Notes: generated by a model not told the origin, from the letters alone. A stretch of DNA of 64,000 nt from Candidatus Kaiserbacteria bacterium RIFOXYB1_FULL_46_14 (GCA_001783525.1 MFMS01000002.1:121791-185790), one strand, 5' to 3'; positions 23,085 to 27,534 are shown, counted from the stretch's first letter. Numbers and translations: made by a program.

Positions 23085-24476
23085 CTAGTAGGTTTCAAGG
23101 AATTTAATGAGAAGACGGACTGGTTCACCGGTTGAGCCTTTGGCTAGTTTGTCGTGCGGAGCGGCGTCCATTCTAGGCGCGATGTCCAAGTGTGCCCACG
23201 GTATGCCCTTTGGTGCGAAGAAAGAAAGAAAAGCCGCACCTTCGATTGCCCCACCAAACTTACTGAAGCTTGGTTGAATATTGACTACATCGGCTCGAGT
23301 CTCGGTAAGTGGTTTTTTGAATTCATCCCAAAGCGGTAGAGGCCACACGTAATCGCCGGTCTCTTCACCAAGGCGTGGCAAAGTCTCCCGCAAGGTGTCG
23401 TTGGTAGTCATTACGGCGCTTGCCTGCTGACCGAGGGCCACCATTGCCGCTCCGGTTAATGTTGCTACATCAATGATCGCTCGTGGCGAAAACTTATTAG
23501 CATATGACATAGCGTCGGCCAAAATGAGTCGGCCTTCGGCGTCGGTGTGAAGCACCTCGATAGTTTTACCCGAATGAGACTTGATGATGTCGCCGGCACG
23601 CATCGACTTTTCTGAGACAGCGTTTTCTGCCACTGGCACAAGTGCTACCACATTTTTCTTAAGTCCTAGTTTTGCGGCCGCCACTATGGCTGCGGCGACT
23701 GAAGAACCGCCAGACATATCCATATGCATGTCGTGCATTCCGCCTGACGGTTTGATGTTGAGACCACCAGTGTCGTAAGTAACACCTTTACCGATTAGAA
23801 CGATCGGTTTTTCCTTCGGCTTGCCGCCTTTGTATTCCATTATCACAAAGCGCGGCATATCGTCGGCACCTTTTCCAACTGCCCATAGAGCATGAAGGCC
23901 TTCTTTCTTGATCTGCTTTTCGTCAAAGACAGTGACTTTGATCTTGGTGCCTTTGGCCAACTTCTTGATGCTTTCACCAAACAGGCGCGGTGTCATGTCG
24001 TCCCCTGGAGTATTGGCGATATCGCGCGCTTGGTTGACGTGTTCGCCGATCAGAATGCCTCGCTTTAAGGCGCTCTGTTGGCCGGAAGCTTCGCTTCCGG
24101 CCAACACCACCTCTTTTAACTCATTTTTCTTGTTCCCTGTTTTATAAGTGTGGAATTCGTAATTGGCTATCAGAACATTTTCCGCTATCGTCTGCCAAAA
24201 CCAGTCACCTCCAAAACCTTTCAATCGAATGAAAGGTTTTGGATCTATCGTCCAGAATAGTTTTTCGATTTTGTGGGACTTAGCTGTTCGAATGATGTTT
24301 CGTATTAACGCTATAAATTTCCGGTTGTTGATTTCGGAAAGTTTGCCAGCAGGGAAACGCAATTCAGTTTGTCCGCTTTTTGTTTCGACAAAGCGATGAC
24401 CGCTTTTCTCATCGGTCAATATCACTGTGACGTAATCCTTAGCTGCGGTTTCGCTTTTACTCGTTTTTACTATCAT
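23085..24476 (-). CDS. pepA: Leucyl aminopeptidase (M17 family)
   Basis: NTPGDDMTP, VGKGVTYDTGG, MHDMHMDMSGG, HLDIAPRMD motifs. Confidence 0.9.
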   Translation of the reverse strand: MIVKTSKSETAAKDYVTVILTDEKSGHRFVETKSGQTELRFPAGKLSEINNRKFIALIRNIIRTAKSHKIEKLFWTIDPKPFIRLKGFGGDWFWQTIAENVLIANYEFHTYKTGNKKNELKEVVLAGSEASGQQSALKRGILIGEHVNQARDIANTPGDDMTPRLFGESIKKLAKGTKIKVTVFDEKQIKKEGLHALWAVGKGADDMPRFVIMEYKGGKPKEKPIVLIGKGVTYDTGGLNIKPSGGMHDMHMDMSGGSSVAAAIVAAAKLGLKKNVVALVPVAENAVSEKSMRAGDIIKSHSGKTIEVLHTDAEGRLILADAMSYANKFSPRAIIDVATLTGAAMVALGQQASAVMTTNDTLRETLPRLGEETGDYVWPLPLWDEFKKPLTETRADVVNIQPSFSKFGGAIEGAAFLSFFAPKGIPWAHLDIAPRMDAAPHDKLAKGSTGEPVRLLIKFLETY

Positions 24477-25818
24477 CAGTTTCAGTTTTACTTAGCAAGG
24501 TGTCGATGCGGTTTATGTCACGAGGGAAAAGAGTTGCCTCTTTTACGTTTGTAACGCCACAGAATTTAGCCGTGAGACGTTCTAGACCCATGCCCCAACC
24601 TCCATGTGGTGGAATACCAAATTCAAAGGCCTGTAAATAGAAAGCAAACTTCGTTGGATCAAGGCCCTTGGCAGTAGCCTTGGCTTTCAAGGTTTCAAGG
24701 TCATGTACGCGTTGCCCACCTGTCGTTATTTCTACACCACGGAAAAGGAGGTCAAAGCTTTTTGTGAAGCCAAGGTCGTCTGGATCTTCCATCGTGTAAA
24801 ACGGACGCTTCGAGACAGGATAGTGAGTAATAAAGATAAAGTCACTGCCGAGTTCTTTTTGCGAATACTCACACAACCAGCGTTCGTCTTCTGGTTCGAG
24901 GTCTGGTTCGTTAGTCTTATCAATGCCAGTGCGTTCTTTAATGAGCTGTTGAGCCTCACGAAGCTTCATATGAGGAAACGAGTCTCCTTCAGGTATGAGC
25001 GGCAATGCAATCTCAAGCACAGTAAGATCATCCTGATGGTACTTGCCCAAGTAGTCAGTCAGGTAGCGCATCAAACCGGTTTCAATTCGCATTAGGTCAG
25101 TGTGATCTTTAATGAATCCAACTTCTGCGTCGAGCGAAGTGTACTCACTTAAGTGGCGAGTCGTAGCGCTCTTCTCAGCTCGGAAAGCAGTCGCTAATGA
25201 GAACACTCGCTCAAATACACCAACCATAATTTGTTTATAGAGTTGAGGACTAGTCGCCAAGAAGGCATCTCTATCGTTGAAGTAGCCAACCTTAAACACT
25301 TCAGAACCACCTTCTGCGTCGCCACCTACTAGCTTTGGTGCTTGAAATTCAGTAAATCCTTCTTGACGCAAATATTCACCATAACAACGAGTAATGGCAG
25401 CTTGAATACGAAAGATGGCACGTTCGTGCTTGCGACGTAGTGTAAGAGGCCGGTTGTCCAGCAAGACTTCCAAACTAAGTTCAGCGTCAAGATCAAATGG
25501 GAGAGCATCGGCTTTGTTTAGTATTTCGATACTGGTGATCTCGAGTTCAATATCACCGTTTTGAACTTTGGCATTGACCATTTTTTCCGGTCGTTGATTA
25601 ACGACGCCATTCACTATGACGGCGCTTTCTGGAGAAGCCAACTTGGCAACCTCCAGCACTTCTGGCTTGCCAAATACAACACCTTGCACTACTCCAGTGC
25701 GGTCACGAAAATCAAAGAAGGCCATTTTGCCCTGGTCTCGTCTTACATCGACTATGGCATTAATACAGACTTCACTACCAACTTTTTCTTTCAGTTCTTT
25801 AATTAGTGTTCTTTGCAT
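24457..25818 (-). CDS. Class IIb aspartyl-/asparaginyl-tRNA ligase (archaeal/eukaryotic-type AspRS or AsnRS)
   Basis: N-terminal OB fold, FRAEKSATTRHLSEYTSLDAE (motif 2), GIPPHGGWGMGLERL (motif 3). Start set at MQRTLIKELK (25818); the longer ORF would translate the leader hairpins. Asp versus Asn specificity is not resolved. Confidence 0.8.
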   Translation of the reverse strand: MQRTLIKELKEKVGSEVCINAIVDVRRDQGKMAFFDFRDRTGVVQGVVFGKPEVLEVAKLASPESAVIVNGVVNQRPEKMVNAKVQNGDIELEITSIEILNKADALPFDLDAELSLEVLLDNRPLTLRRKHERAIFRIQAAITRCYGEYLRQEGFTEFQAPKLVGGDAEGGSEVFKVGYFNDRDAFLATSPQLYKQIMVGVFERVFSLATAFRAEKSATTRHLSEYTSLDAEVGFIKDHTDLMRIETGLMRYLTDYLGKYHQDDLTVLEIALPLIPEGDSFPHMKLREAQQLIKERTGIDKTNEPDLEPEDERWLCEYSQKELGSDFIFITHYPVSKRPFYTMEDPDDLGFTKSFDLLFRGVEITTGGQRVHDLETLKAKATAKGLDPTKFAFYLQAFEFGIPPHGGWGMGLERLTAKFCGVTNVKEATLFPRDINRIDTLLSKTETDDSKNE

Positions 25819-26005
25819 AGTTTTTGTCGCTGCGAAAACAGAAATCCTCGCAACAAATTTAATTGTTGCGAGGACGCTGAAGGAGAATCTTCCGCGCGGT
25901 GCCACCTCGCTTCTCGAGCTTAGCTCGAGCACTCTATGCGATTGTTAATAGTAACCTCCGCGGTTGTCAGCCACATCGTTGGTTATCCGAATATTAGCAT
26001 TTGTC
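25819..26005 (-). promoter_or_regulatory. T-box riboswitch-like leader with terminator/antiterminator, upstream of aspS
   Basis: In the minus-strand sense, GCGAGGUGGCACCGCGCGG (plus 25892-25910) matches the T-box consensus AGGGUGGNACCGCG. It is followed by the hairpin CCUCGCAACAA-UUAAA-UUGUUGCGAGG plus a U-tract (plus 25832-25873), whose 5' arm is complementary to the GCGAGG that precedes the UGGC bulge. Confidence 0.55.
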
Positions 26006-26944
26006 CTAGATAATGCCAATTTTCTGACGAACCTGAACCATCTTAGTAGCTGCCTCGGCGCGGGCGGCTTCGCCGCCCGCCTTCAACACCTCCGCCACCA
26101 TCTCATCGGTAATACTCTCACGCTTCTCTCGCATTGGACCAACTAATGCTTCAACGTCACTAAGTAGAGCTTCTTTTAAGTTTTTATACTTACCCTTGTT
26201 TTCTTCGTAAATTTTTTCTAGTTCGTCCTCACTTCTGAGGAGTTTGTGGATAGCATAAACATTTTCTGGGCGGTCGCCAGTGGAGTCAGTGACTATTCCC
26301 ATTACGGCCTTTTGTACTTCTTCTTTTGTACCAAAAAGTGGGATGGTGTTTTTGTAGCTCTTCGACATCTTTTGACCATCTGTGCCTGGCACAGTGCCGA
26401 CACCCGCTACTATCTTTTCAGTAGGCTCCTTGAATAAGTCTCCGTAAGCCACGTTAAATTTCTTGGCGGCTTCGCGAGCATACTCAACGTGTTGTTGTTG
26501 ATCGCGACCAACGGGAACAATGTCGGTATCGTAAAGCAAAATATCAGCTGCCATTAGCATTGGGTAGTTGAACAAACCGGCATTAGCCTCCAATCCTTTT
26601 GCTACCTTATCTTTGTAGGCGTGGGCTAGTTCGAGATATTTCACAGGTATCAGACATTCAAAAATCCAAGCTAGTTCAGTATGTTCTGGTACGTCTGATT
26701 GTTTGAAAATAACTGCCTTTTTTGGATCGACGCCAGCGGCGAGGTAATCCTTCACTACGTCAATGGTGTTGCGACGAAGTAGGTCACTGTTTTTAAGAGT
26801 GGTGAGAGAGTGATAGTTGGCGACCATTAAGTGACTATCGTATTCCTCGTACGTATCAACAAAAGGTTTTAAAGCCCCGAAGTAATTACCGATATGTAAT
26901 GCGCCCGAGGGTTGGAGTCCAGTGAATAACCGCTTTTTAGACAT
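26006..26944 (-). CDS. trpS: Tryptophan--tRNA ligase
   Basis: TGLQPSGALHIGNY (HIGH region), KMSKS. Confidence 0.9.
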   Translation of the reverse strand: MSKKRLFTGLQPSGALHIGNYFGALKPFVDTYEEYDSHLMVANYHSLTTLKNSDLLRRNTIDVVKDYLAAGVDPKKAVIFKQSDVPEHTELAWIFECLIPVKYLELAHAYKDKVAKGLEANAGLFNYPMLMAADILLYDTDIVPVGRDQQQHVEYAREAAKKFNVAYGDLFKEPTEKIVAGVGTVPGTDGQKMSKSYKNTIPLFGTKEEVQKAVMGIVTDSTGDRPENVYAIHKLLRSEDELEKIYEENKGKYKNLKEALLSDVEALVGPMREKRESITDEMVAEVLKAGGEAARAEAATKMVQVRQKIGII

Positions 26945-26970: not shown

Positions 26971-27456
26971 TTAAAGAAAGAAAAGTACTACGAGTGGCAA
27001 TATAAGCCACAAAAAAGCTAATTTTTCAGACAGTAAGAATTCTGGGAGCGGAGTGCCGGTCGGTATGACGGCATCGACTGGCAAAAAGTGAGTACTGAGT
27101 GTCAGTACCAAAACTGTGAAAAGGCCGGCGAGGAGAAGTTTTTTACCAATGGTTTCAAAAGCACTTTCTAGGTATTCTCGTGGCATCAGACGACTAAATA
27201 ATAAAGCCGATATTATCGTAAATCCAACAAATACCACCAGTGCGATAGCAGCAGAAGCGCTTTTGCCAGCGGCATTTTCGGTCAGCGTTTCTAAGTAAGG
27301 AAAATTGGTGTATAGAAAAAGTCCAAGATAGGCACCCATCATTACATTAATAAGCGCTTGTCGGCCTTTGGCCATTGCTAAGGCAAGACCAAGAACAAAA
27401 GCACCAAGCAAAAAGAACCAGCCGTTTAATATAGAAAGAATGACGTCAAAATCCAT
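26971..27456 (-). CDS. CvpA-like multi-pass membrane protein (hypothetical)
   Basis: 4-5 TM helices; the MDFDVILSI... start resembles CvpA. The start is placed after the dnaJ terminator, which lies inside the longer ORF. Confidence 0.4.
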   Translation of the reverse strand: MDFDVILSILNGWFFLLGAFVLGLALAMAKGRQALINVMMGAYLGLFLYTNFPYLETLTENAAGKSASAAIALVVFVGFTIISALLFSRLMPREYLESAFETIGKKLLLAGLFTVLVLTLSTHFLPVDAVIPTGTPLPEFLLSEKLAFLWLILPLVVLFFL

Positions 27457-27496
27457 AATGACAATTGTACAATTGTAAGTACATTCTCGAAGTGGT

Positions 27497-27534
27497 GCTA
27501 GGTGGATAGAAAACGCGGCGTGGCCATTGGCCAC
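27497..27534 (-). terminator. Intrinsic terminator after dnaJ
   Basis: AGAAAACGCGGCGTGGCC-ATTG-GCCACGCCGCGTTTTCT. Confidence 0.8.

Follow-up and report, generated by a model that had tools for sequence, protein, structure and literature searches.

A strongly reduced candidate T-box riboswitch upstream of aspS in a Candidatus Kaiserbacteria genome

At the junction of trpS and aspS in a Candidatus Kaiserbacteria bacterium (Patescibacteria/CPR) is a 187-nt spacer, which raises the question of whether aspS is controlled by an RNA that senses tRNA. The DNA in which the spacer lies, referred to here as the window, is one stretch of 64,000 nucleotides. On its minus strand the gene order is dnaK, dnaJ, an open reading frame (ORF) without a Pfam match, trpS (26944..26006), the spacer (26005..25819), aspS (25818..24457) and a gene for an M17 aminopeptidase; the trpS stop codon TAG is at 26008..26006 and the aspS start codon ATG at 25818..25816. 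The ORF between dnaJ and trpS (26971..27534, minus strand) comprises 187 amino acids when read from a GTG and is called with 161 amino acids in public assemblies. T-boxes serve as a model for RNA recognising another folded RNA, and the spacer very probably encodes one of them, a T-box riboswitch coupling transcription of aspS to the charging state of tRNA-Asp, with the uncharged tRNA as the species most likely to be sensed.

24457..25818, minus strand: aspS, the putatively regulated gene, encoding an archaeal-type non-discriminating AspRS of 453 amino acids

The aspS product matches NCBIfam NF003483 at 468 bits (cut-off 353) and is composed of Pfam tRNA-synt_2 and an OB fold. Gene calls and homologues begin at the ATG at 25818, in agreement with a preliminary description of this DNA, which had held the N-terminal extension of an ORF at 24457..25932 to be spurious. 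Its placement of a 187-nt minus-strand leader between the trpS stop and the aspS ATG checks out as well, and the CPR host that it had inferred is indeed a member of the Kaiserbacteria, with relatives among the Patescibacteria. The closest genome to the window is MFKO01, Kaiserbacteria RIFCSPHIGHO2_01_FULL_46_22 (AspRS protein identity of 92%). An identical AspRS protein is present in JGI, Logan and ENA assemblies, and the leader sequence was assembled independently in these three data sets.

Encoded between the two genes, from 5′ to 3′ in the transcript, are the following elements.

25991..26019, minus strand: sigma70-like promoter TTGGCA-17-TAATAT, with TG before the -10, overlapping the trpS stop codon
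25955..25982, minus strand: complete ultrashort Stem I, a K-turn with a 5-pair helix UGUGG/CCGCG and a 7-nt terminal loop
25964..25970, minus strand: specifier loop CUGACAA, with GAC (Asp codon) at 25968..25966, U before it and A after it
25936..25954, minus strand: 19-nt linker UUACUAUUAACAAUCGCAU, standing where the Rfam alignment deletes Stem II and IIA/B
25930..25935, minus strand: purine box AGAGUG, directly 5′ of Stem III and aligned to AGuG of the Rfam consensus
25913..25929, minus strand: Stem III, CUCGAGC-UAA-GCUCGAG, 7 pairs, -10.7 kcal/mol
25910..25892, minus strand: T-box 19-mer GCGAGGUGGCACCGCGCGG
25895..25908, minus strand: T-box 14-mer GAGGUGGCACCGCG, agreeing with 11 of the 13 defined positions of AGGGUGGNACCGCG
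25868..25910, minus strand: antiterminator, with A1 GCGAGG/CCUCGC, a 7-nt bulge and A2 GCG/CGU
25834..25875, minus strand: intrinsic terminator, a 13-pair hairpin (25875..25844) with a 6-nt loop, -21.5 kcal/mol, followed by UUCUGUUUUC

At the base of Stem I, where T-box leaders have a K-turn with its GA motif, is the arrangement CC-AAC-GA ... GA-GG, composed of a CC/GG C-stem, an AAC bulge and the sheared pairs G25977.A25957 and A25976.G25958. Beyond the linker, AGAGUG corresponds to the ‘RAG’ purines of the discriminator domain, whose role is taken here from published work (PMC11297988), and it is followed by a 7-pair hairpin, as Stem III follows conserved purines in T-box leaders. Minimal leaders of related genomes conserve A(A/U)GAG at the position of the purine box, and the place of Stem III is taken in relatives by hairpins of unrelated sequence (GCUC/GAGC, GGCC/GGCC, GUUCUC/GAGAAC, UCCUAGCG/CGCUAGGG and others). 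Forming the antiterminator, with the AGGGUGGNACCGCG-like segment as its 5′ side, are helix A1, whose complementary strands are GCGAGG (25910..25905) and CCUCGC (25873..25868), the bulge UGGCACC (25904..25898), and helix A2, extended by an inserted 18-nt hairpin (25894..25877). The 5′ arm of the terminator (25875..25863) includes the 3′ strands of A2 and A1, and the U-tract that follows the hairpin is interrupted (UUUCUGUUUU). The RNA that begins with Stem I and ends with the antiterminator is 117 nt long.

The preliminary description had already noted that GAGGUGGCACCGCG agrees with the T-box consensus at 11 of the 13 positions defined, that a GUGG/CCGC helix closes the loop CUGACAA (25970..25964) and that GCGAGG and CCUCGC are complementary, all of which holds as stated. 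Its account of the terminator needs amendment: the hairpin was said to follow the T-box motif immediately, whereas the 18-nt insertion that extends A2 lies between them, and a hairpin with a U-tract is present, with 13 pairs and a 6-nt loop in place of the 11 bp proposed.

Three promoter-like sites were found, against 0.5 expected, and transcription is predicted to start near 25984, 2-3 nt before Stem I. About 40 related leaders have a -10-like hexamer that stops 7-9 nt short of the first C of Stem I, so that no structure can precede Stem I and the minimal leaders are complete. Elsewhere in the group, aspS begins 5-30 nt after an apparent trpS, recognised from conserved C-terminal coding sequence, with no leader between them (L005, L006, L016, L018, L021-L023, L028, L035, L036, L038, L041, L046, L051, L052 and L056; L numbers designate loci). 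Given this leaderless trpS-aspS operon in other members of the group, the T-box and promoter of the window split that operon.

Taken alone, the T-box sequence is not significant. A 14-mer with two mismatches is expected 0.89 times per 64 kb, and at least one match appeared in 59 of 100 shuffles; significance must therefore come from the whole arrangement. The Rfam T-box model (RF00230) matches the window from end to end (model positions 1-219, at 25988..25867) with 35.7 bits, corresponding to an E value of 1.9e-6 in the region alone and of 2.7e-4 when all 4227 families are run on the whole window. The gathering score of this family is 93, and at the gathering threshold Rfam finds no T-box in the window (only a tRNA-Thr) nor in 20 relatives. 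The covariance-model hit above threshold that the preliminary description looked to as a check was formally missed, although the T-box reading itself stands, owing to recurrence of the element among aspS loci and to its covariation. In the Rfam alignment the K-turn, the AGUG box, Stem III, the T-box and the antiterminator align well; 74 distal positions of Stem I are reduced to 5 nt, the 27 positions of Stem II to 2 and the 13 of IIA/B to 2. The low score is thus due to missing peripheral domains and not to absence of a T-box. A relative in which Stem II and the IIA/B elements align scores 49.6 bits (L027), and another, L012, has no Rfam T-box match.

A covariance model, referred to here as R1, was built from 26 leaders outside the window's clade, with the window, L004 and L127 left out. 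R1 matches the window over its full length with 58.6 bits (E = 9e-14) and finds no second element below E = 0.1 in the 64 kb, the next match having E = 0.14. Applied to the relatives, which are 80 aspS loci from a scan of one genome per species, all of them Patescibacteria or mislabelled bins, it detects a single element in 44, which precedes aspS and shares its strand in each case. The folding z-score of the leader is -3.8.

The motif AA(G/A)UAGGGUGGCACCGCG is located about 100 nt upstream of aspS in 35 of the 80 loci and, with variable small ORFs between, 400-2000 nt upstream in about 10 more. One or two unrelated small ORFs separate the T-box terminator from aspS in about 14 loci (L007, L020, L040, L047, L064 and L069-L081), among them hypothetical membrane proteins, a peptidase E-like protein and a hydrolase-like protein; as these ORFs differ, the leader would control variable operons. 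Common to all collected leaders with the motif is a short Stem I of the form CCnnnGA-N-(3-5 bp)-YUGACAM-(3-5 bp)-N-GAGGU. Across 44 aligned Stem I segments, conservation of the K-turn is complete or no lower than 90% at its GA/GA and CC/GG positions, and compensatory changes are seen at six of the seven Stem I pairs in these leaders (covariation score of 0.319, against 0.156 in shuffles, with none of 500 shuffles as high and slid controls at or below 0.129). When Stem I, A1 and A2 are considered together in the 26 leaders outside the window's clade, 11 of 17 pairs have compensatory changes, and 89.5% of cells are paired, against about 41% with slid partners. Helix A1, usually GUAGGG/CCCUAC, is GCGAGG/CCUCGC in the window's clade, GUGAGG/CCUCAC in L075 and GUAGGA/UCCUGC in L037, each change on one strand being compensated on the other, and most relatives carry a perfect AGGGUGGCACCGCG (13/13). 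The bulge is UGGC, with N = C, in every leader collected. The UGGN bulge of the preliminary description is thereby borne out, as is the conservation of motif, specifier and terminator in orthologous leaders, which 44 of the 80 loci show, covariation included. Sequence and covariation together make evident both the RNA structures and the fact that they exclude one another.

These comparisons bear on whether the element could be a decaying remnant of a T-box, acting now as a constitutive attenuator, or just the trpS terminator followed by an aspS promoter. Such decay could explain the two mismatches in the 14-mer, the low Rfam score and the missing domains, and about 36 of the 80 relatives have no T-box, with aspS directly after trpS in many. 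However, helix A1 compensates for both mismatches, and substitutions within the window's clade, which has three members, leave every helix intact. Conservation with covariation of the specifier, K-turn, bulge and terminator extends over loci whose AspRS proteins share only 32-92% identity. The promoter, furthermore, is upstream of the hairpin and not downstream of it, and we regard a remnant as highly improbable. In five of the loci without a T-box (L030, L032, L033, L034 and L043) a GC-rich hairpin and a U-run are followed, 90 nt before aspS, by GCUAUUUUAUAGACAUUAUGG, which suggests a promoter giving a very short leader or none.

The amino acid to which the T-box would respond is indicated by its specifier. 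Among the 44 aligned leaders the triplet is GAC in 41, GAU in two (L064 and L069) and AAC in one (L066), so that 43 present an Asp codon; an A follows the triplet in all of them, and at least 90% have a U in front of it. In the window, GAC with its following purine A precedes a gene for AspRS, as expected of a T-box leader whose specifier matches the regulated gene, and what had been put forward as a possible GAC+A Asp specifier in a hairpin loop gains the support of both the relatives and the gene downstream. AspRS itself is of two kinds in these genomes, archaeal-type in the window and L004-L060 and bacterial-type in L061-L083 (NF001750, 550-600 bits, about 440-460 amino acids matched). Because leaders with the same codon precede two non-orthologous AspRS types, the link is to aspartate and not to one gene lineage. 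Two types behind a single T-box design imply gene replacement under a retained leader, or leader transfer.

Bacterial tRNA-Asp and tRNA-Asn carry the discriminator G73, and the UGGC bulge would fit this G73. No tRNA-Asp gene was found in the window or in the approximately 95 loci searched. The one leader with AAC (Asn) as its specifier (L066:565-688) stands before a bacterial-type AspRS, and its close relative L068 ends at a contig end. L066 may sense tRNA-Asn, with its AspRS contributing to the synthesis of Asn-tRNA as well, or it may simply be an isolated variant.

Sorted by how far the T-box lies from the 3′ side of Stem I, the leaders fall into three groups. At 57-211 nt, leaders generally contain Stem II (a purine string and AGUA) and a IIA/B pseudoknot (CCGUUA). 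At 36-50 nt, only the linker, purine box and Stem III are present (the window, L004, L127, L009, L010, L063, L067 and others). At 27-32 nt, Stem III is also absent (L012-L015, L017, L092, L145 and L161); in this group Stem I to the end of the antiterminator comprises 84-106 nt, and Rfam gives no T-box match at E <= 0.01. Examples without Stem III include L092:856-939, of 84 nt, and L161, on the minus strand; some such relatives are 84-86 nt long. Stem II and IIA/B, deleted in the window, are kept in L027, L074 and L026, with an F-box CCGUUA in L027, so that alongside its truncated Stem I the window is missing a module that part of its own family retains. The elbow-binding platform (AG bulge and distal loop) is absent from the window and from every relative. 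Minimal forms and forms with Stem II alternate among close relatives, which points to repeated loss or remodelling.

Transcriptional T-boxes generally need a long Stem I with an elbow-binding motif, ultrashort Stem I being found in translational ones, with the Stem I platform held to be essential for the transcriptional class and the Stem II domain for any T-box whose Stem I is truncated (PMC7583486); only glycine T-boxes are without Stem II and IIA/B (PMC11297988). As the window has neither the platform nor the Stem II domain, both described as essential, autonomous function is not assured. The combination of an ultrashort Stem I, no Stem II domain and a terminator was not found described in the literature searched, coverage of which was incomplete.

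Two readings of this reduced T-box follow. The minimal RNA may be unable to hold tRNA alone, with a protein or another RNA supplying the contacts of the platform or of Stem II and IIA/B. In its favour are the reviews, which report both domains to be required in the systems studied, and the relatives of only 84-86 nt that lack Stem III as well. No candidate factor was seen, however, and no gene is consistently associated with the leader: the upstream genes differ, and the ORFs between T-box and aspS are mutually unrelated. The alternation of minimal and Stem II forms among close relatives also suggests that the domain is dispensable in this lineage, and a helper of this kind appears unlikely. 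The other reading is that two contacts, a K-turn-anchored anticodon loop (maybe 5 nt) and an NCCA-pairing bulge, suffice for a transcriptional T-box, a proposal that we hold tentatively, at slightly less than an even chance. If true, the 117-nt RNA of the window and the relatives of 84-86 nt would be the smallest natural tRNA-sensing switches, and the elbow platform and Stem II domain would be accessories and not requirements.

How the T-box would act on aspS is suggested by its 3′ half. Folded alone, the antiterminator adopts the canonical shape (6-pair A1, 7-nt bulge, extended A2) at -19.3 kcal/mol. The minimum-energy fold of the nascent RNA includes the antiterminator until the 3′ arm of the terminator is added, and then contains the 13-pair terminator (-21.5 kcal/mol). 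With a strand shared between them and a U-tract following, terminator and antiterminator are mutually exclusive, as in other T-box leaders, and the competition proposed in the preliminary description is upheld by the shared strand and the alternative folds. Among related leaders, 39 of 45 have at least five U in the 8 nt after the segment that re-pairs the antiterminator 3′ strand, a figure obtained as a strand-complement count. Between the end of the terminator hairpin and the ATG are 25 nt, and no Shine-Dalgarno sequence or start codon falls within the hairpin; owing to this distance, the lack of a ribosome-binding site and the U-tract, the output is most simply transcription termination. 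In L113 (minus strand), where the leader precedes a bacterial AspRS of 590 amino acids, no obvious terminator was seen; two copies of GGUGCC downstream of the T-box are complementary to the bulge GGCACC, and a different shut-off route is possible there.

Downstream of the terminator stem is one further element.

25823..25838, minus strand: post-terminator element UUUUCGCAGCGACAAA, 16 nt, complementary to the terminator 3′ arm

Together with the terminator 3′ arm, this element can form an alternative hairpin of which the U-tract is the loop. In the window the duplex has -15.5 kcal/mol, the best of 52, with a mean of -5.8 kcal/mol when post-terminator segments of other leaders are substituted, and L004 has G-C in place of an A-U pair of the window. 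About half of the related leaders carry the element (median of -13.4 kcal/mol; 15 pairs in L065), and pairing is stronger between cognate segments than across loci (p = 0.002). It may lock the read-through conformation or protect the freed strand. A relay from this element to the start codon was considered and rejected as a general mechanism, since in constrained folding the start region was more accessible in the ON state in only 15 of 30 leaders.

The post-terminator element also enters a reading in which the switch acts, wholly or additionally, on translation, the ‘terminator’ being a sequestering helix and the element passing the state of the switch on to the start codon. Points of resemblance to the Actinobacterial translational class are the decoding half and the A2 insertion; the element is complementary to the terminator 3′ arm, CGUUCC also matches the start region AUGGAACG in some relatives, and the computed accessibility of the start region in the window rises from 0.64 to 0.82. 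The position of the hairpin, clear of the ribosome-binding region and start codon, the U-tract in most leaders and the divided outcome of the accessibility computation speak against it, and we judge action on translation to be quite improbable.

For the transcriptional T-box that we favour, tRNA binding, read-through and the start of transcription are modelled on the established T-box mechanism. Transcription would start at the promoter overlapping the end of trpS, to judge from the promoter match. The first 28 nt would then fold into the K-turn-anchored hairpin, the part of the scheme for which sequence and covariation speak directly, and its 7-nt loop would display U-GAC-A. The GUC anticodon of tRNA-Asp would pair with GAC, and U33 and A37 of the tRNA could lengthen this pairing to UGACA:UGUCA, five pairs at positions 33-37. 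The bulge UGGC, about 65 nt further downstream and separated from the loop by the linker, purine box and Stem III, would meet the free 3′ end of the tRNA, placing its C opposite G73. Uncharged tRNA would in this way stabilise the antiterminator, and RNA polymerase would read through into aspS; with the tRNA charged or absent, the 13-pair terminator would capture the antiterminator 3′ strand and transcription would stop at the U-tract.

T-boxes have been surveyed in Firmicutes, Actinobacteria, Chloroflexi, Deinococcus-Thermus and a few Deltaproteobacteria, with Patescibacteria not listed (PMC2494555). No paper joining T-box riboswitches with Patescibacteria or CPR was found, in a search whose incomplete coverage makes this no proof of novelty. 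A motif scan of about 617 kb of related sequence detected no T-boxes outside aspS leaders. Metagenomes were scanned with the pattern K-turn...GAGG...GGTGGNACCGCG for minimal T-boxes with other specifiers; another 17 Asp leaders came out of the scan, along with numerous chance matches to GC-rich coding DNA. No minimal T-boxes with other specifiers were found with this pattern, the only other T-boxes, L162 trpE and L087 thrS, being non-minimal; as the pattern is biased to the aspS family, that absence proves little. The T-box of L087 (5696-5772, on a GC-rich metagenome contig) has the bulge UGGA and is upstream of a ThrRS-like gene.

Read from its sequence, the leader is a strongly reduced and new variant of the T-box, in a phylum where T-boxes are not annotated. 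A conserved, covarying family without platform or Stem II, yet with a terminator, provides a natural test of two rules for T-boxes, namely that capture of tRNA at sufficient speed depends on a Stem I platform, and that Stem II and IIA/B have to support any Stem I that is truncated. The family also supplies a very compact scaffold for engineering and structural studies, and with it T-boxes extend to the Patescibacteria, whose genomes are tiny and in which few regulators are known. None of these aspS leader elements is picked up when Rfam annotation is applied at its threshold.

Of the known systems, the glycine glyQS T-box is, like the window leader, transcriptional and naturally without Stem II and IIA/B, but it has a long Stem I and a distal platform that stacks on the tRNA elbow, whereas the window leader has neither contact. 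With the ileS T-boxes of Actinobacteria, which have a short or ultrashort Stem I and for which M. tuberculosis structures are available, it shares the absence of an elbow platform and the presence of insertions atop A2, and relatives of the L027 type keep, as the ileS leaders do, Stem II and the IIA/B pseudoknot. The specifier of the ‘ultrashort’ class, as described by Sherwood, Grundy & Henkin in 2015, reportedly lies in the terminal loop. The ileS leaders are translational, with a sequestered Shine-Dalgarno sequence, a Stem II domain reported to be essential and Ile as the amino acid, in contrast to the terminator with U-tract, the missing Stem II domain and the Asp specifier of the window. 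From the canonical transcriptional T-boxes of Firmicutes (RF00230, for example B. subtilis tyrS) the window leader differs in that Stem I is cut just above the specifier, making the specifier loop the terminal loop, in the absence of the AG bulge/distal-loop elbow platform and of Stem II and IIA/B, and in its length of 117 nt. Shared with these canonical T-boxes, by sequence comparison, are the K-turn at the base of Stem I, the specifier and its following purine, the purine box, Stem III, a T-box within a 7-nt-bulge antiterminator, a competing intrinsic terminator, and an aminoacyl-tRNA synthetase gene apparently placed under its own tRNA.
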